From: a virus
IMG/VR virus record: IMGVR_UViG_3300028584_001241
Length of the DNA: 64,000 nucleotides
Reading direction: 5' to 3' (one strand)
Shown here: piece after piece, positions 25,471-58,388 of the stretch
Numbering within the stretch: the first letter of the stretch is position 1
How the letters are laid out: the number at the start of each line of letters is the position of its first letter
The notes under the pieces: generated by a model
What the model was told of the DNA's origin: nothing
The model's database searches: none
What the model saw: the letters and a program-made list of their open reading frames with translations, nothing else
Position numbers and translations under genes: made by a program

Positions 25471-25565
25471 GATTAATTCCTTATGTTAAAATAATGGCTA
25501 ATTATATCATGAAACAAAAAAATAGGCAATAAAAAAGAGAACACGCAAGTTCTCTTTATTTAATT

Positions 25566-25640
25566 TGGTGGACCTGATGGGATTCGAACCCACGACCTCT
25601 TGTATGCCATACAAGCGTTCCCCCTCTGAACTACAAGCCC
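25566..25640 (-). tRNA. tRNA-Ala (GGC)
   Basis: Cloverleaf, CTTGT-ATGGCAT-ACAAG anticodon arm, G3:U70, encoded CCA. Confidence 0.9.
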
Positions 25641-25651
25641 AAAAATAAAAG

Positions 25652-25775
25652 TAGAAAGGAATGGATTCGAACCATTATCACTATCCACATGGCCTATAAA
25701 TCACGAAAATTTATCTGACATGGGATTTAAAGTTACCGGGTCATCCCGGCTGCTCGCCCGTTAAGCTACCTTTCT
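25652..25775 (-). ncRNA. tRNA-like RNA with 4-6 nt anticodon loop and 58-nt extra arm, no encoded CCA
   Basis: Acceptor AGAAAGG/CCTTTCT, D-arm, GCCGGG-ATGA-CCCGGT, T-arm AATGG-TTCGAAT-CCATT. Confidence 0.7.
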
Positions 25776-25782
25776 ATCAATC

Positions 25783-25857
25783 TGGTGGTTCTGCAAGGAA
25801 TCGAACCTTAATCATCCCGTTATGAGCGGGGTGCATTTACCGTTATGCTACAGAACC
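25783..25857 (-). tRNA. tRNA with CAT anticodon (elongator Met or Ile2)
   Basis: CCCG-CTCATAA-CGGG arm; G1:C72 so not initiator; encoded CCA. Confidence 0.85.
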
Positions 25858-25874
25858 ATAATTTACATCTAATT

Positions 25875-25951
25875 TGGTGGGACTTGTAAGACTTGAACTT
25901 ACGACCTGCCGATTATGAGTCGGATGCTCTAACCAACTGAGCTAAAATCCC
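25875..25951 (-). tRNA. tRNA-Ile2 (CAT, lysidine type; reads AUA)
   Basis: CCGA-CTCATAA-TCGG arm and body resemble enterobacterial ileX (recalled); CCA. Confidence 0.8.
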
Positions 25952-26029
25952 ATATTGAATGAACGCCCCCGGAAACCACGGCTTCAATCCAGTCTTACCT
26001 TTAAAGTAAAACCCCCTTATTCTTTTAAA

Positions 26030-26563
26030 TCATTTAAACTCGATAAAAGACAATTCCAGATCAGTCAATTTAGCTCGTATAGAAGCAACAACTTCTGGTC
26101 TAATCTTGTTTCTCTCTGTTGCTTTGTCTTTTTCACGTTTGCGTTTTCTTTCTGCTCGTTCTTTTGTTAAATCAATAGAAAATTTAAGCGATTCAATGCT
26201 GCCAAGCACTTCATCTTCAAATTCTTCATAAATATATTTTGACGGAAACTTATTAAAATAAAGATCAATTACTTTATTTTTATATTCCAAATCATCAATA
26301 TCACTGAAAAACATAAATGTATCAATATAACGTTGATAATCATAGTGTCCAACATCCACACCTTGATAGCTTTCTAAATCAACAGTATCAAAAACAACCC
26401 ATGTATATTTCAAATTCAACAGTGTAGCAATTTTATCAAAAACATACAAAGCACGATTAATAATTTTGTCAGAAATTTCCTTGCTTTCTTTAATTGTTCT
26501 AAAGTCTGCTTTCGCATTAATATATTCATCTTTTGTTAAAGGTGAAACATAATCAATTGACAT
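26030..26563 (-). CDS. Hypothetical protein inside tRNA array
   Basis: 177 aa, GAGG RBS. Confidence 0.7.
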   Translation of the reverse strand: MSIDYVSPLTKDEYINAKADFRTIKESKEISDKIINRALYVFDKIATLLNLKYTWVVFDTVDLESYQGVDVGHYDYQRYIDTFMFFSDIDDLEYKNKVIDLYFNKFPSKYIYEEFEDEVLGSIESLKFSIDLTKERAERKRKREKDKATERNKIRPEVVASIRAKLTDLELSFIEFK

Positions 26564-26596
26564 TATTACATCCTCTATATGGTCTAAACATAAAAT

Positions 26597-26673
26597 TGGC
26601 GTCCGTGATAGGGATCGAACCTACGACCTTCCGCTTAGGAGGCAGACGCTCTATCCAACTGAGCTACACGGAC
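26597..26673 (-). tRNA. tRNA-Arg (CCT)
   Basis: TCTGC-CTCCTAA-GCGGA anticodon arm, CCA. Confidence 0.92.
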
Positions 26674-26683
26674 AAACAAAAAC

Positions 26684-26758
26684 TGGTGGACCGTCAGGGA
26701 CTCGAACCCAGCACTCCTGCGTGCAAGGCAGGTATTTTCCCAGCTAAACTAACAGCCC
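26684..26758 (-). tRNA. tRNA-Ala (TGC)
   Basis: CCTGC-CTTGCAC-GCAGG, G3:U70, CCA. Confidence 0.92.
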
Positions 26759-26764
26759 ATAGTA

Positions 26765-26951
26765 GTATTTCTTCTAACGCTTCACGGATGCAAGCATCTC
26801 CACGCTTCGAAGTGTCGGTAAATACCTACCGGATATACTTATCAGAGGTCAAACTACAGTGATTAAGCTGTTTCAATCATACTTGACCAGTATACTAGTT
26901 GCTAATCAGGCAACACGGCTCTTTTTAAGTTAGCTTACAACAAACTAACTC
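26765..26951 (-). ncRNA. Candidate structured ncRNA between tRNAs
   Basis: About 190 nt without a credible ORF; several nested or adjacent hairpins. Confidence 0.45.
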
Positions 26952-26956
26952 GTGAT

Positions 26957-27032
26957 TGGTATTCCCAGTAGGACTCGAACCTACAACCTATGACTTAGAA
27001 GGTCATTGCTCTTCCAATTGAGCTATGAGAAC
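26957..27032 (-). tRNA. tRNA-Arg (TCT)
   Basis: ATGAC-CTTCTAA-GTCAT, CCA. Confidence 0.92.
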
Positions 27033-27047
27033 ATTAAAACTATAATA

Positions 27048-27122
27048 TGGTGGACCAACAGAGAATCGAACTCTGAATTCCTGCGTGCAAGGCAGGTGTT
27101 TTCCCAATTAAACTATCAGCCC
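27048..27122 (-). tRNA. tRNA-Ala (TGC)
   Basis: CCTGC-CTTGCAC-GCAGG, G3:U70, CCA. Confidence 0.92.
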
Positions 27123-27133
27123 ATATTTAAATC

Positions 27134-27205
27134 TGGTGGAGCCTCGTGGCCTCGAACCACGTTCATTTATTGCTAAATGGTTTTTCCCGTTAAACTAAAC
27201 GCCCC
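27134..27205 (-). tRNA. Atypical or pseudo tRNA with Ala acceptor identity and collapsed anticodon loop
   Basis: G3:U70, ACCA end and intact T-arm, but anticodon arm is CATTT-AGCAAT-AAATG (6-nt loop). Confidence 0.6.
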
Positions 27206-27210
27206 AAATT

Positions 27211-27287
27211 TGGTGTCTGCGGCTGGATTCGAACCAGCGACCATCCGCTTAGAAGGCGGATGCTCTATCCAACTGAGCTACGCAGAC
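27211..27287 (-). tRNA. tRNA-Arg (TCT)
   Basis: TCCGC-CTTCTAA-GCGGA, CCA. Confidence 0.92.
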
Positions 27288-27312
27288 ATATTTCTTTATT
27301 CTACAACTAATA

Positions 27313-27387
27313 TGGTGGACCGTCAGAGAATCGAACTCTGAACATCTGCGTGCAAGGCAGGTATTTTCCCAGTTAAACTAACAGCCC
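27313..27387 (-). tRNA. tRNA-Ala (TGC)
   Basis: CTGC-CTTGCAC-GCAG, G3:U70, CCA. Confidence 0.92.
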
Positions 27388-27392
27388 ATATT

Positions 27393-27653
27393 TTAAATTT
27401 GTTCTACAATTTCCCATTTTCTATCTAATAAGTCAACAAGATAATTATGTCCCGCATATTCTACCACTATCATCGAAGATGTGTCAATCATCCCAGCAAC
27501 ACCATCGAAATCATTCTCATGTTGCTCAGGTTCTGGTGTAACACCTTCAACAACCTTATACTCTCCTTCCGGCAACCCCAGAAGTTCACCTATTTTAGTT
27601 GCAAGCCAAATGGTATCACCAGCTTTTAATATCTTAGGTTCTGGAGCATTCAT
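27393..27653 (-). CDS. Small hypothetical protein (86 aa) inside tRNA array
   Basis: GAGGT RBS before MNAPEPK; the longer track ORF overlaps a tRNA. Confidence 0.7.
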   Translation of the reverse strand: MNAPEPKILKAGDTIWLATKIGELLGLPEGEYKVVEGVTPEPEQHENDFDGVAGMIDTSSMIVVEYAGHNYLVDLLDRKWEIVEQI

Positions 27654-27676
27654 AGACACCTCTACGTTAACAAATC

Positions 27677-27754
27677 TGGTGGAGACAAAGAGAATCGAAC
27701 TCTTCACAGTCTGCGTGCAAGGCAAACTCGCCATCCCTTGGAACATGTGCCCCC
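27677..27754 (-). tRNA. tRNA-Ala (TGC) with atypical D-arm
   Basis: TTTGC-CTTGCAC-GCAGA, G3:U70, CCA; D-arm pairs poorly. Confidence 0.8.
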
Positions 27755-27811: not shown

Positions 27812-27840
27812 ATCTTACCAACTCTTTTCTTCTTTGTCAA
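27812..27840 (-). promoter_or_regulatory. sigma70 promoter P2, proximal to tRNA array
   Basis: TTGACA-N17-TAAGAT with AT-rich upstream region. Confidence 0.75.
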
Positions 27841-27931
27841 CAACTATTTTAAATTATTTTAAACTATTTTTCCTTTTAAATCAATAATATACAAACATTA
27901 GGGTAATACAATACCCTTCTCAAATAGGCAT

Positions 27932-27966
27932 AAAAAAAGCCTTTGAGTTATTACCCTCAAAGGCTC
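27932..27966 (-). terminator. Attenuator terminator hairpin
   Basis: AGCCTTTGAG-GGTAATAA-CTCAAAGGCT followed by U-tract. Confidence 0.9.
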
Positions 27967-28024
27967 CACATTCGTTTGCCAGAGGGTTTAGCGTGTGCTA
28001 ATCCCTCTCAATGAGATTAGCTCA

Positions 28025-28066
28025 CTAAGATATCGCTCTGGCTCTTATAGTTAATTGAATGTTCAT
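28025..28066 (-). CDS. Leader peptide MNIQLTIRARAIS
   Basis: AGGA RBS; ATG AAC ATT CAA TTA ACT ATA AGA GCC AGA GCG ATA TCT TAG. Confidence 0.8.
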   Translation of the reverse strand: MNIQLTIRARAIS

Positions 28067-28094
28067 AAAATAAATTCCTATTTAATATTATCAA

Positions 28095-28123
28095 ATTATA
28101 AACCTATTTTTCAAAAAAGTCAA
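28095..28123 (-). promoter_or_regulatory. sigma70 promoter P1 driving the leader/attenuator
   Basis: TTGACT-N17-TATAAT. Confidence 0.85.
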
Positions 28124-29397
28124 TGCAATAAGATATTTTTCTTAACTTCTATAATCTGTTGTGGAGATCTCGGCTTATTAAGATAGCCAGCCAAGTTTTG
28201 GCCTCTTTTCTTATCATGGCATCTTGGGCACCAAGACTTTCGATGCTTAATAGATGAATAAGTAGTATTCCACACATGTCCATCAGCACATTCAAATGTT
28301 AAGGGAGATCGGCCATTCACATATTCAGTAGAAATAAATTTACCACCTTTACTCATAGCATGTTCGTTCATCTCTTTAATAGGATCAACCAATTTGTTGT
28401 TAGCACAATAAGGGCACCACTGATCGTTATAAATAATACCATCGCTGGCCTTTTCAAATGAATGTCCTTCCGAACAAACAAAACTTAATTTTTCTTTTAA
28501 GTTTTTGAAACTAGTAGAGATGCATTGACCGCCTTTTGAAATAGCAATGGCCGAGACTTCTTCTAATGTATCACCTTCTCGCAATCGTCCATTACAATAA
28601 GGACACCAATGACCTTTTTTAATAGATTTAGGCACTGCTTCCCATTCATGTCCTTTTTCACATTTCCATTTCGCTTTTGAATTATTCCCTAAATACTTAA
28701 CAGATAAGCATTCACCATTCATTTTTTTTGCCAATTCCTTGAGTTCATTAATTTTGGAACTTGAGAAAGGTAGTTTTTTAAATTTGCTAATTTGATCTGG
28801 TGTAACAGTGATATTTAAATCTTTTTGAAAAATGCTAGTTAAATAATTAATGAAGGTATCTCGTGAATAGCCATCTTCCAAATATTTAATTTCAATAAGA
28901 TGAACACTATTTTCCTTACACAAGGTTCTTACTTTTTCATCACGTTCTTTTTGATGTTCAAAGGTCTTATGATTTCGATCATGAAAATGGGGGATATGGT
29001 GATAGTGTTGTTCACCATGATATTCAAATGCAATCCCAAGATCGGTATTGAATCCATCTAGAATACATTTACGTTCGCCTTCAACTTGAAGCCATTCTGG
29101 GCTAGATCCTTTAAAGGGTTTATCAAATACTGTTTCAAAAAATTGACGAACAAGGTTTTCGGTTTTATTCGAACGGCAAGATGGACACCATGTTCCACGC
29201 TTAATATCATTAGGACGTGCAGACCATTCATGCTGATCAATACATCTGAAATTCATCTTAATATGACTGGCTACATATTCATTATCCAGACATTCACCAC
29301 CATTTTCGGCAGCAATAGAGGTGATTTCAAGATAATGGTCTTGTTTTGTTTTCAGATGTTTTGCTTTATGGGCTGATAATTTTACAGTATTAGTCAT
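28120..29397 (-). CDS. Zinc-ribbon repeat protein with PD-(D/E)xK/Vsr-like nuclease domain (putative homing endonuclease)
   Basis: Four C-x2-3-H...WCPxC repeats; LDGF..IAFEYHGEQHY..D..VR core. Confidence 0.75.
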   Translation of the reverse strand: MTNTVKLSAHKAKHLKTKQDHYLEITSIAAENGGECLDNEYVASHIKMNFRCIDQHEWSARPNDIKRGTWCPSCRSNKTENLVRQFFETVFDKPFKGSSPEWLQVEGERKCILDGFNTDLGIAFEYHGEQHYHHIPHFHDRNHKTFEHQKERDEKVRTLCKENSVHLIEIKYLEDGYSRDTFINYLTSIFQKDLNITVTPDQISKFKKLPFSSSKINELKELAKKMNGECLSVKYLGNNSKAKWKCEKGHEWEAVPKSIKKGHWCPYCNGRLREGDTLEEVSAIAISKGGQCISTSFKNLKEKLSFVCSEGHSFEKASDGIIYNDQWCPYCANNKLVDPIKEMNEHAMSKGGKFISTEYVNGRSPLTFECADGHVWNTTYSSIKHRKSWCPRCHDKKRGQNLAGYLNKPRSPQQIIEVKKNILLH

Positions 29398-41671: not shown

Positions 41672-42133
41672 ATGTTGTAGATTGATAATACTGAATTCGA
41701 CTTCATCACAAAAGAGGCTATTCTTAGCCAATACACTCAATTTGTTCCTTCGGACAAAGACTCACATTACTACATCTATTCAATCATTCGCGGCGATTTA
41801 AATATGCCAACAGGTAAGCTCGCAGCTCAAGCTGGTCACGCTTATACAGATGCATTGACAAACGCACAAGAATCACACCCAGATAACGTTAAACATTATA
41901 GAAATCGTCAATCAGGCGGCTCTAAGGTTACGTTAAAAGCCAAAAACGAAGATCATTTAATTAAAGCATACAACCAAGCTGTTGCTGCTGGATTGCCATG
42001 CTCAATTATTGTCGATCAAGGCCACGTTTTACCACCACACTTTGATGGTTCGCCAATCATTACCGCTCTCGGTATTGGGCCTTGCACCAAAGAACAAGTA
42101 AAACAAATCACCAAGAAATTTCAGTGTGTATAA
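41672..42133 (+). CDS. pth2: Peptidyl-tRNA hydrolase Pth2 with in-frame TAG at codon 3 (41678-41680)
   Basis: YIYSIIRGDLNMPTGKLAAQAGHA, KVTLK, IVDQG, TALGIGP; AAGGAG RBS precedes ATG 41672. Confidence 0.85.
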
Positions 42134-42142
42134 GGGGGACTT

Positions 42143-42910
42143 ATGAATAAAGAATTACTATTAACTATTATTCGTGAGCACAACATCACATTAACTGAAA
42201 CATCCATTCAACGATTAATAGAGTTGGCTGAAATTCAGGCCAACTGGGATGGTCGTGATGCAGAACCTATGGATGAGAATTCCTGCAGAGATCTCTGTCA
42301 TTTTTTAAGCACTGTAAAAGAAGCTATCCCAACTGACATTGGATTTTTCTTTAATCATGAAGGATCTATGAGCATTAACTGGATGTTAGGTGAAAGATTA
42401 GTGGACGTTTGCTTCGAACCAGAAGCTACTTATCTTTACATGACAGGTTATGACGATGGTATTGCACTCCCTAGGTCAGTGTTTAAACATTTCAAATACA
42501 CCGATCCAGAAAGCTGCTTTATCAGCTATAAAACAAAATTGGAGATGGTTTCTGGAATGTTATATAAATTGAGACAAGAGACAGCTAAAAATTTAGTTGA
42601 AGTGATTGCTTATGACTATGGTTGGGGCGAACATGGAGATGAATTAGAAATGAATACAGATGCCTTACATTCATTTGTTCATTTTATAGATAACTTAGAG
42701 GTGTTACCGGAAAAAATAATTATTTTTTTAACCCACGAAGGATTCTTAGAAGTCGTGTTGATGGATTATGATCCGCGTCACGAAATAGAATTTACACCAG
42801 AAGGGTTGCTTTTTTTCTTAGCCCCCGAATATGACATGACAGAAGTCAGCAAAAACAATTTTAACCAATATAAAGATATTAACGATTTTCTAACAGGAGA
42901 AACAAAATGA
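42143..42910 (+). CDS. Hypothetical protein with internally duplicated domain
   Basis: NWDGRDAEPM / GWGEHGDEL and FFNHEG / FLTHEG repeats. Confidence 0.75.
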   Translation: MNKELLLTIIREHNITLTETSIQRLIELAEIQANWDGRDAEPMDENSCRDLCHFLSTVKEAIPTDIGFFFNHEGSMSINWMLGERLVDVCFEPEATYLYMTGYDDGIALPRSVFKHFKYTDPESCFISYKTKLEMVSGMLYKLRQETAKNLVEVIAYDYGWGEHGDELEMNTDALHSFVHFIDNLEVLPEKIIIFLTHEGFLEVVLMDYDPRHEIEFTPEGLLFFLAPEYDMTEVSKNNFNQYKDINDFLTGETK

Positions 42911-43269
42911 GCAGATTAGCAATGATAAACACCATGAAAATTTTTTTAAAAACAGAAAGACCGCATCGTGACGGTGATGGACACAAAGTTAAAGTATTAT
43001 TCTTAAAAGACTATGTGTTGTATGCATTATTAAGAGAGAAAAAAGACTTTACTAACTGTGCTACTGATAAATCGCAAGCTATTTCGATTGCTCTAGACTG
43101 GTTAAGTGCTGTCGAAAGATCCAGAAAACAACTAGAACTTAATAACTTAGAATCGTGGGATTTAAAAGCATTAAAATATAAAATAGGTGTTGACTTCACT
43201 GTTGAAGATTTGGTACAATTAGAACACGCAATAAAGAACCAAATAGATAAACTAAATGTTGAAAAGTAA
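42907..43269 (+). CDS. Hypothetical protein (related to 43900..44328)
   Basis: YVLYALLREK versus FMLYAIIKGK. Confidence 0.7.
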   Translation: MSRLAMINTMKIFLKTERPHRDGDGHKVKVLFLKDYVLYALLREKKDFTNCATDKSQAISIALDWLSAVERSRKQLELNNLESWDLKALKYKIGVDFTVEDLVQLEHAIKNQIDKLNVEK

Positions 43270-43297
43270 TCAAAAACTAACCATTAGGAGAATGACC

Positions 43298-43897
43298 ATG
43301 ACTATGTAGATTGATAAAATTGAAAACCTTAGCTTCAACGATCTTGTTAAAGAGATGAAAGCTTGTGAACAAACACAAGGCATGAATGTTCTTCAACATG
43401 GATTGTCAGTCAATAAATACTTTCAGGATTTGAAAGATCACATTATTGATGGAAAACCATTAGCTCTCGAATGGAGACTTCCTGATTGGATTTACAATAA
43501 ATCTATCTGGAGTAACTTGGCAGATGACAAAGACATCAAAACCTATCAGATTTATCACGACTGTGGTAAGCCATTCTGTTTGACAATTGATGAAAATGGT
43601 AACCGTCACTTCCCTGACCATGCACAAGCATCTGGTCTAATCTGGCGTAAAATCGGTGGCACTGAACTTCAAGCTCAATTGATGGAGCATGATATGGATA
43701 TTCATTTGCTTAAAATGGATGACTTTGAAGATTTCTATGCACTTCCGTTCGCTGCAACCCTATTGATTACTGGTTTCTGTGAGATTCACAGCAATGCTGC
43801 TATGTTTGGTGGTATTGAATCAACAAGTTTTAAAATCAAGTGGAAAAAGATTAACAAAATCGGCAAAAAATTTAATGATAAACTATTAGGAGAATAA
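43298..43897 (+). CDS. HD-domain phosphohydrolase (CCA-adding-enzyme-type HD) with in-frame TAG at 43307-43309
   Basis: VLQHG, YHDCGKP, RHFPDHAQAS, HDM; AGGAG RBS precedes ATG ACT ATG TAG. Confidence 0.75.
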
Positions 43898-43899
43898 TC

Positions 43900-44328
43900 A
43901 TGAACGCTATTGAAAAAAATGAAACTATCGAAACAACTGAAATGAATAAAAGAGACTTAATTAAAAAAGCGGTTGTCACATTCCGTGAAGGCTATAAAGA
44001 GAATAAACATGTTTGCACCTTAGAAGTCTTTATGTTGTATGCAATCATCAAAGGAAAACATGTGGATGTAACCATTAAGGATAATCACTACAAAGAAGGC
44101 TGCAATCCATTTGATCACCACCCAGTATTCAAATATAACATTGAAAAGGTATCAAATATCAATGCGGGTATTTTGCTGGAGTATGGACAAGGTGCAATCA
44201 GAATTATTTCGAAGAGTAATTATATGGTTAACTCAGTCAATGAAAAAGTTAAATACTTCTTCGGGCTAACACCAGTGGAATTTGAGTTCTTGCTCAATCA
44301 ATATGTAGAAGAAAGAAAAGCCTCTTAA
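43900..44328 (+). CDS. Hypothetical protein
   Basis: AGGAG RBS; last gene of operon. Confidence 0.75.
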   Translation: MNAIEKNETIETTEMNKRDLIKKAVVTFREGYKENKHVCTLEVFMLYAIIKGKHVDVTIKDNHYKEGCNPFDHHPVFKYNIEKVSNINAGILLEYGQGAIRIISKSNYMVNSVNEKVKYFFGLTPVEFEFLLNQYVEERKAS

Positions 44329-57314: not shown

Positions 57315-58388
57315 TTATTTCTTTAAATCATTTTCTAAATCGTCATACAAACTGTTTTCGGCTTTGATAGCATTTAATTTTTCAGCTTCTTTTGCAGCGG
57401 CTGCAGCTTTAATCTTATCTTTTTCTGCTTTAATGGCTGCTTCTTTGGCTGCTATCTCATCGGCAGCTATCTTCTTAAAGTCAACGGCAATCACTGGCTT
57501 AACATAAGGTAATACACGGCCCATTACAATTTCTAAGTAATGCTTATCATCAACTTTGATAGATTGTTTTGAATCTGTTTCCAATTTTATCCAGAATACG
57601 TTTGAGGTAACAGATGATTTAATCGCTGGAATCTTAACCTTAGTAAGAACACCTTCTGTTGTTATGACTTCTGTTTCTTCATATGAAGAAATTGCTTTAT
57701 TTGTATAGTCCAATCTAACAGAAACTCTATTATTCTTTTTGTCATACTCTTTTATTTGAATAATATAACCATAACCATACACCAAAGTGCCTAATTCTTC
57801 TTTAACTGTTGCTTTACCTGTCACTTTATCAATGTTTGTTTTTGTGCCGATATAAACATTAGGTTCTTCAACGTAGTTTGAAAAACTAACAATTTTATTT
57901 TTATTGGCTTCATCAGCAAAGGCAACAACTTCTTTATCTGCTTTGTGATCATCAGCAACGCCCGTCATAATACCCATTGCAATTTCATCTTTGCTTAATG
58001 TCTTAGTAATGATGCTTTTGTTAAGTCTTTTAACATTCAGTACAAAGTTAGTGCCAGAAACTGGAACAACAAGCGTAGGCATAGTTTTTGATTTCTCAAC
58101 GACTGGACCAACAACAGCCTTGTCTACATCAATAGGAGTAACAGTCGCTTCTGGTTTTGAAACTTTGGTTTCTTTAACAGGTGTGGAAGCTTTCTTTTCT
58201 ACTTTAACGGTTTCTGTTTTTTTTGTTTCAACGGGTTTCATTTTCTCTTTTTCTGGTGTTTTTGCTGGTGCTGTTGGTGTGTCATTAAGAATATCCGAGA
58301 TATCCATTAAATCATCACCAGACAATTGTGCATTCGCCTGAAAAGAGATACCACTCAATATTGCGAGTGCCAAAATTGTTTTTCTCAT
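57315..58388 (-). CDS. Secreted protein with K/E/P/T-rich linker
   Basis: Signal peptide ANA|Q; AGGAG RBS. Confidence 0.75.
   Translation of the reverse strand: MRKTILALAILSGISFQANAQLSGDDLMDISDILNDTPTAPAKTPEKEKMKPVETKKTETVKVEKKASTPVKETKVSKPEATVTPIDVDKAVVGPVVEKSKTMPTLVVPVSGTNFVLNVKRLNKSIITKTLSKDEIAMGIMTGVADDHKADKEVVAFADEANKNKIVSFSNYVEEPNVYIGTKTNIDKVTGKATVKEELGTLVYGYGYIIQIKEYDKKNNRVSVRLDYTNKAISSYEETEVITTEGVLTKVKIPAIKSSVTSNVFWIKLETDSKQSIKVDDKHYLEIVMGRVLPYVKPVIAVDFKKIAADEIAAKEAAIKAEKDKIKAAAAAKEAEKLNAIKAENSLYDDLENDLKK

Follow-up and report, generated by a model that had tools for sequence, protein, structure and literature searches.

A candidate ribosome-mediated attenuator with leader codons that match the tRNA array behind it

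Why mobile elements carry tRNA genes is an open question, with compensation for codon usage and replacement of tRNAs cut by host defenses as the alternatives under discussion (PMC10264068). The locus described here raises this question in a narrower form. In the window, by which we mean the whole stretch of 64,000 nucleotides that was analyzed, an array of tRNA genes is preceded by a short open reading frame (ORF) containing a run of codons that the array itself reads. Is the array regulated by the decoding of these codons? We consider it likely that the intervening sequence is a ribosome-mediated transcription attenuator that tunes the array to the decoding of its own codons.

Leader anatomy and the tRNA array

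All elements of the original prediction, namely, promoter P1, the AGGA ribosome-binding site (RBS), the 13-codon leader with its run of six array-read codons, helices A:B to E:F, and a second promoter, P2, are in place on the minus strand (Table 1). P1 is one of the two best sigma-70 matches within 10 kb, and its hexamers are invariant across five close loci in which the spacer varies; a promoter-like site is found in distant loci too. The terminator helix E:F comprises 12 pairs, its hairpin (27967-27936) being followed by a U tract, and the 166-nt leader RNA folds far better than its shuffled counterparts (z = -4.95). When the nucleotides of the leader were shuffled 200,000 times, no shuffle produced a run of six array-read codons, and in the compared loci none of the remaining RBS-led small ORFs (83 in all) has such a run longer than three. 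The predicted list of helices was incomplete in one respect, as it overlooked the pairing of segment S (codons 9 and 10) with 27983-27978, the helix that sets the default OFF state. This S helix is fully kept in five close loci and is weak or absent in distant ones.

Table 1. Features of the locus and of matching leaders elsewhere (window coordinates unless a locus is named)
Feature	Coordinates	Strand	Remarks
Upstream zinc-finger/HNH-like endonuclease gene (neighbor only)	28120..29397	-	Other genes in its place in five relatives
P1, sigma-70-type promoter, 17-nt spacer	28095..28123	-	Score 11/12
Shine-Dalgarno core AGGA, 9 nt before start codon	28076..28079	-	RBS core in all homologues
Leader ORF, 13 codons plus stop	28025..28066	-	Frame open in 8 loci (13, 15, 16, or 18 codons)
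Sensor block, codons 7-12: Ile(ATA), Arg(AGA), Ala(GCC), Arg(AGA), Ala(GCG), Ile(ATA)	28031..28048	-	6-8 such codons in all homologues
Segment S (codons 9-10), predicted to pair with 27983-27978 when ribosome-free; default OFF helix	28037..28042	-	Folding
Hairpin A:B, 10 bp, overlaps stop codon	28006..28030	-	10/10 pairs in all 8 loci
Alternative hairpin B:C, 9 bp	27997..28021	-	All cells paired, one double change
Hairpin C:D, anti-antiterminator	27981..28008	-	Folding and relatives
Antiterminator D:E	27953..27987	-	Re-formed in shifted register in L035 and L037
Intrinsic terminator E:F and U tract	27932..27967	-	10/10 pairs in all 8 loci, one double change
P2 module: IHF-consensus-like 13-mer (27891-27879), A/T tract, promoter P2 (27840-27812)	27812..27891	-	Common to all three leader-bearing array types
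tRNA array: ten genes, degenerate tRNA-like RNAs, inserted ORFs	25566..27752	-	Ala, Arg, and CAT only
Terminator closing the array	25534..25557	-	Sequence scan
Leu-codon leader attenuator	L012:2797-2857	-	Also in L022, L025, L028, and L030
Ser/Tyr-codon leader attenuator	L047:343-396 (G002)		17 codons, eight consecutive Ser/Tyr

The array comprises genes for Ala(TGC) (four copies), Ala(GGC), Arg(TCT) (two copies), Arg(CCT), and tRNAs with the anticodon CAT (two copies). The G3-U70 pair is present in all its Ala tRNA genes. One CAT tRNA (25951-25875) has the same anticodon arm as E. coli tRNA-Ile(CAT), and tRNA-Ile accounts for most of its top-scoring counterparts in E. coli, which suggests that this gene is Ile2-like. 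The one-to-one correspondence originally proposed between leader codons and array tRNAs does not hold, as the leader lacks an AGG codon although the array carries Arg(CCT), and the Ile2-like assignment applies to a single CAT gene.

The array also holds less canonical elements, all on the minus strand. Its first Ala(TGC) gene (27752-27677) has an aberrant D arm, yet is near-invariant across relatives. A tRNA-like gene (27203-27130) combines Ala-type acceptor and T arms with a collapsed anticodon loop, and similar degenerate copies with other loops occur in L001, L009, L033, and L035. At 25775-25652 lies a tRNA-like RNA of about 124 nt, in which the anticodon loop is short and the extra arm long and structured; this RNA is conserved in L001 and detected by the tRNA model in the nearest relative, G001. 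A long structured noncoding spacer (26951-26765) is likewise conserved in L001. Of the ORFs between tRNA genes, 27653-27393 is missing from L001 and L009 and 26563-26030 is missing from L009. Elsewhere in the window, a Pth2 peptidyl-tRNA hydrolase operon (41804-44328) is conserved near the array in the distant relatives L033, L035, and L037.

As predicted, P2 lies downstream of the terminator and so bypasses the switch; it is strong and is kept in every locus. In the Ala/Arg/Ile2 and Leu arrays (the latter described below), the IHF-consensus-like 13-mer lies 37 to 38 nt upstream of the -35 box. Ahead of this 13-mer, right behind the terminator, is a 16-nt motif that is loosely conserved, and a weak additional match to the P2 module is present at 57618-57671 of G001. 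The discriminators of P1 and P2 are both A+T-rich, in contrast to those of host stable-RNA promoters.

Folding model and proposed switch

Equilibrium folding with the complete terminator favors termination in every ribosome state, and the same is true for hisL and thrL. Since these proven attenuators fail it too, equilibrium folding was dropped as a test, and since the terminator wins at equilibrium, the switch must be kinetic. The metric used here was the energy cost of releasing the 5' arm of the terminator at the point where its pairing partner is about to be transcribed, with the RNA under the ribosome masked. This cost is 3.3 kcal/mol for the ribosome-free leader or with a ribosome at early codons and rises to 8 to 9 kcal/mol at codons ~6 to 11; it is 3.5 to 5 kcal/mol at the stop codon, where the outcome, as at the last sensor codon, depends on the footprint assumed. 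By the same metric E. coli hisL shows the same stall-position profile (~1.6 to 1.9 kcal/mol, 6 to 7 over the His codons, and 2 to 3.8 at the stop codon). None of 300 spacer shuffles matched the switch. Breaking D in the model abolished most of the effect, and synonymous swaps of codons 9 and 10 disrupted the S:D helix and raised the predicted basal read-through. For L033, L035, and L030, the model gives a weaker or narrower switching window. In the original prediction stalling acts by masking A. That a stall favors the antiterminator is borne out by the model, but at codons 7 to 9 the switch would be thrown mainly by unmasking D from the S helix rather than by masking A.

The course of events that we infer, from leader translation through stalling and read-through to feedback and its trigger, is as follows. 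RNA polymerase would start at P1, with a ribosome following on the leader. With no ribosome on the leader, or upon release at the stop codon, A:B and C:D would form, assisted by pairing of codons 9 and 10 with D, leaving the 5' arm of the terminator free, and transcription would stop near 27932. If charged Ile2, Arg(UCU), or Ala tRNA ran low, the ribosome would linger at codons ~6 to 11, and B:C and the antiterminator D:E would form before the 3' arm of the terminator is made. P1 transcripts could then extend into the array and add to the output of P2, and the new tRNAs would relieve the stall, closing a negative feedback loop. In terms of the model, more array tRNA is probably made when ribosomes read these codons slowly. 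Wastewater metatranscriptome contigs cover the leader and array of relatives; they are possibly derived from DNA and give neither transcript ends nor levels.

Conservation and matching leaders at other arrays

Conservation in homologous loci, which the prediction had required, extends to both the codon class of the leader and its helices in eight related loci. Leader length (13 to 18 codons) and codon order shift among them, while the leader always ends in six to eight Ile(ATA), Arg(AGA), or Ala codons. In the close relatives L001/L008, L009, L010, and L015 the unit is nearly unchanged, and the leader differs only in codons 5 and 6, before the sensor block; beside it, the in-array ORF of 177 codons is only 70% identical between the window and L010/L015. 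In the distant relatives L033, L035, and L037 (23 to 31% G+C), the leaders are 18, 15, and 16 codons long, and their N termini are unrelated. Their RBS is kept, and they end in seven to eight ATA, AGA, or Ala codons that are reordered but lie at the same distance to the stop codon. As RBS, frame, and codon class are retained despite changes in length, N terminus, and order, this pattern points to selection on translation of the leader.

The helices behave similarly. All substitutions in A:B, B:C, and E:F preserve pairing, and for B:C and E:F together 151 of 151 cells are paired, versus at most 63% in slid registers. Covariation is thin, with two double changes and an equally high value in 38 of 500 shuffles. 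In L035 and L037, segments D, E, and F are jointly changed such that the antiterminator can form again, in a shifted register.

Other tRNA clusters might be expected to have leaders that match their own anticodons, as had been suggested, and two further array types do. In G001, a second array, in which 11 of 13 tRNA genes are Leu, is preceded by a promoter, an RBS, a Leu-codon ORF, alternative helices, and a terminator. This leader has nine Leu codons among 19 to 20 and uses all six Leu codons (binomial P, ~1e-5), and its relatives differ by synonymous Leu swaps and an in-frame deletion. The anticodons of the Leu array are TAA, CAA, TAG, CAG, and the unusual AAG. A deaminase gene near this array was considered as a TadA for Leu(AAG), which is unsupported, as the protein scores as ComEB/dCMP-deaminase-like. 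The third array, in G002, contains four Ser genes, including Ser(AGA), and two Tyr genes and follows a leader of Ser and Tyr codons. Counted against the Ala-Arg-Ile2, Leu, and Ser-Tyr sets, cognate codons number 6/1/1 in the window leader, 0/9/4 in the Leu leader, and 1/1/8 in the Ser/Tyr leader. The rule is limited, in that scattered tRNA genes lack leaders: no matching leader is present at ten other tRNA loci of G002 or at the lone Arg(CCG) gene of L015/L019. Elsewhere in G002 (L052 to L054; 381200-389600), repeated G+C-richer noncoding units of 200 to 260 nt lie between promoters and Cys, Pro, or Asn tRNA genes; they resemble structured RNAs and have no leader ORF. The P2 module is the one feature that suggests kinship between G002 and the element in the window, and two window proteins have no match in G002.

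What exactly the leaders sense is a further question. The same attenuator could act as a multivalent sensor of amino acid starvation (Ile, Arg, and Ala) or of slow translation in general rather than of individual isoacceptors, which we regard as a possible though less probable reading. It is favored by part of the codon usage. The prediction had called the leader codons rare, and relative to an E. coli-like host this is correct for ATA and AGA (2.2 and 1.1 per 1,000 in a sample of 7,133 codons), but GCC and GCG are common there (26.8 and 37.7 per 1,000, versus 6.9 and 3.8 on the element). Likewise, the Leu leader includes all six Leu codons, Tyr codons are not rare, and in the model a stall at almost any internal codon of the Leu and Ser/Tyr leaders favors antitermination, with these leaders OFF at the last codons as well. 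Against starvation sensing, Ile in the sensor block is ATA and Arg is AGA in every lineage, codons that need Ile2 and Arg(UCU), even though the element uses ATT twice as often; furthermore, the controlled genes yield tRNA, not an amino acid. On the element itself ATA and AGA are abundant (22.1 and 14.8 per 1,000), AGA being its commonest Arg codon. The starvation and isoacceptor readings share a common mechanism and are not mutually exclusive.

It is unlikely that the terminator is constitutive, ending the endonuclease or P1 transcript, with the array transcribed from P2 only and the P1 product being a small RNA or a peptide with another role. The dominance of the terminator at equilibrium would fit such an arrangement, P2 could supply the array by itself, and the near-invariant 150-nt leader of the close relatives could signify a structured RNA. 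However, five relatives retain the attenuator unit even though another gene lies upstream of it, and in L010 and L015 a separate terminator-like hairpin precedes P1. Together these observations remove the interpretation that the terminator merely ends the endonuclease transcript, which the prediction had listed among the outcomes that would refute it. The N terminus of the peptide is not conserved, and a product acting in trans would leave unexplained both the codon content that tracks the adjacent array in three unrelated leaders and the antiterminator kept by joint changes. The idea that a small ORF and hairpins came together by chance in A+T-rich DNA, for which one might cite that promoter-like sites in the region are at shuffle level (63 versus 52) and that the codon set was chosen with the array already in view, is refuted by the codon and spacer shuffles, by leader conservation next to a much more divergent 177-codon gene, and by confirmation of the prediction on two independent array types. 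Thus, with codons read by the downstream tRNAs, pair-keeping changes, hisL-like switching, and two further arrays in its favor, the his-type layout originally proposed is upheld, and the candidate attenuator is conserved and very probably functional.

Known systems, the replicon, and significance

The window leader has those defining features of the attenuator class that can be read from sequence: a short RBS-led ORF between promoter and genes, related tandem control codons, a mutually exclusive antiterminator and terminator, and, in the model, a spacing by which the antiterminator is favored when the ribosome stalls at the control codons but not when it has reached the stop codon. It shares with E. 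coli hisL (and with trpL, pheL, and leuL) the order of promoter, short ORF with tandem control codons, six-segment alternative helices, and intrinsic terminator. Leader-peptide attenuation is known for genes of amino acid synthesis and for synthetase genes; unlike hisL-type attenuators, which control amino acid synthesis, the window leader precedes tRNA genes and has a second promoter behind its terminator. Multivalent attenuators are exemplified by thrL (Thr and Ile) and ilvL of ilvGMEDA (Ile, Leu, and Val), in which, as here, several codon classes feed one switch, and pheM, the attenuator of pheST, similarly controls part of the translation machinery. In contrast to all three, the output in the window would be tRNA itself, so that the loop closes on the decoding molecule, and the codons are isoacceptor specific (ATA and AGA). 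No Rfam or NCBIfam model matches the window leader or the Leu leader; the window leader does not belong to the His, Thr, Leu, Trp, or Phe leader families of Rfam, and its downstream genes are tRNA genes, not biosynthetic or synthetase genes.

T-box riboswitches also let the state of a tRNA set the choice between terminator and antiterminator, but they do so by direct tRNA-RNA binding without translation (PMC4695836), and the window leader gave no Rfam match to a T-box at the gathering threshold or at E <= 10. Of the published ways in which plasmid tRNA operons are controlled, the closest is the repression of a trn operon by TrcR in Anabaena (PMC10272220). This megaplasmid trn operon is likewise induced under translational stress; it differs in being a single operon of 26 genes under a protein repressor, with no leader peptide and no codon specificity (PMC10272220). 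Neither leader-peptide control of tRNA genes nor T-boxes ahead of tRNA genes were found in the literature, within a largely open-access scope. What would be new here is the application of ribosome-mediated attenuation to tRNA genes, the his-type mechanism itself being known already.

The window has a G+C content of 32% and carries mostly unknown genes, in addition to genes for ClpA, an OmpA-type lipoprotein, Pth2, and a CoaD-like protein. Its relatives lie on contigs of 1.54 to 1.86 Mb, the closest on contigs of 1.84 to 1.86 Mb with ~32% G+C. A homologue of the in-array ORF with 64% identity occurs in L015 and in sequencing runs SRR6439512 and SRR6439514, which are listed as pMEGA2-like and as covering ~94% of pMEGA2 (bioRxiv 10.1101/2025.09.30.679422). 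The pMEGAs are low-G+C megaplasmids of Enterobacteriaceae with 104 to 208 tRNAs in amino acid-specific blocks; attenuators and leaders are nowhere mentioned in the preprint that describes them (bioRxiv 10.1101/2025.09.30.679422). They appear to resemble the relatives of the window in their low G+C content, megabase size, and block-arranged tRNAs, but the 20 pMEGAs are smaller and poorer in G+C than the closest relatives (1.31 to 1.58 Mb and 25.7 to 29.6%) (bioRxiv 10.1101/2025.09.30.679422). Via the shared sequencing runs, the replicon is probably a relative of these megaplasmids; we infer a larger sister clade, with a host that is probably gammaproteobacterial. As IMG/VR files fragments of relatives as viral, the replicon may alternatively be a giant phage. 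Scans of GTDB genomes with the P2-module and Leu-leader patterns gave no match, and PLSDB, INPHARED, and E. coli genomes yielded generic tRNA matches only.

If the leaders function as proposed, attenuation would extend to feedback on tRNA abundance itself, and a leader that reports on the codons of its own array would imply that the element treats its tRNAs as a supply on demand. The leader also offers a ready reporter for the kind of stress that calls up the array tRNAs. The relatives seem to be part of megaplasmids that were obtained from E. coli isolates. Tentatively, such leaders might serve as counter-defense sensors in a megaplasmid family of E. coli and other Enterobacteriaceae: by stalling, they would detect destruction or inactivation of host tRNAs by anticodon nucleases or tRNA-modifying toxins and, array by array, switch on sequence-diverged replacement tRNAs.
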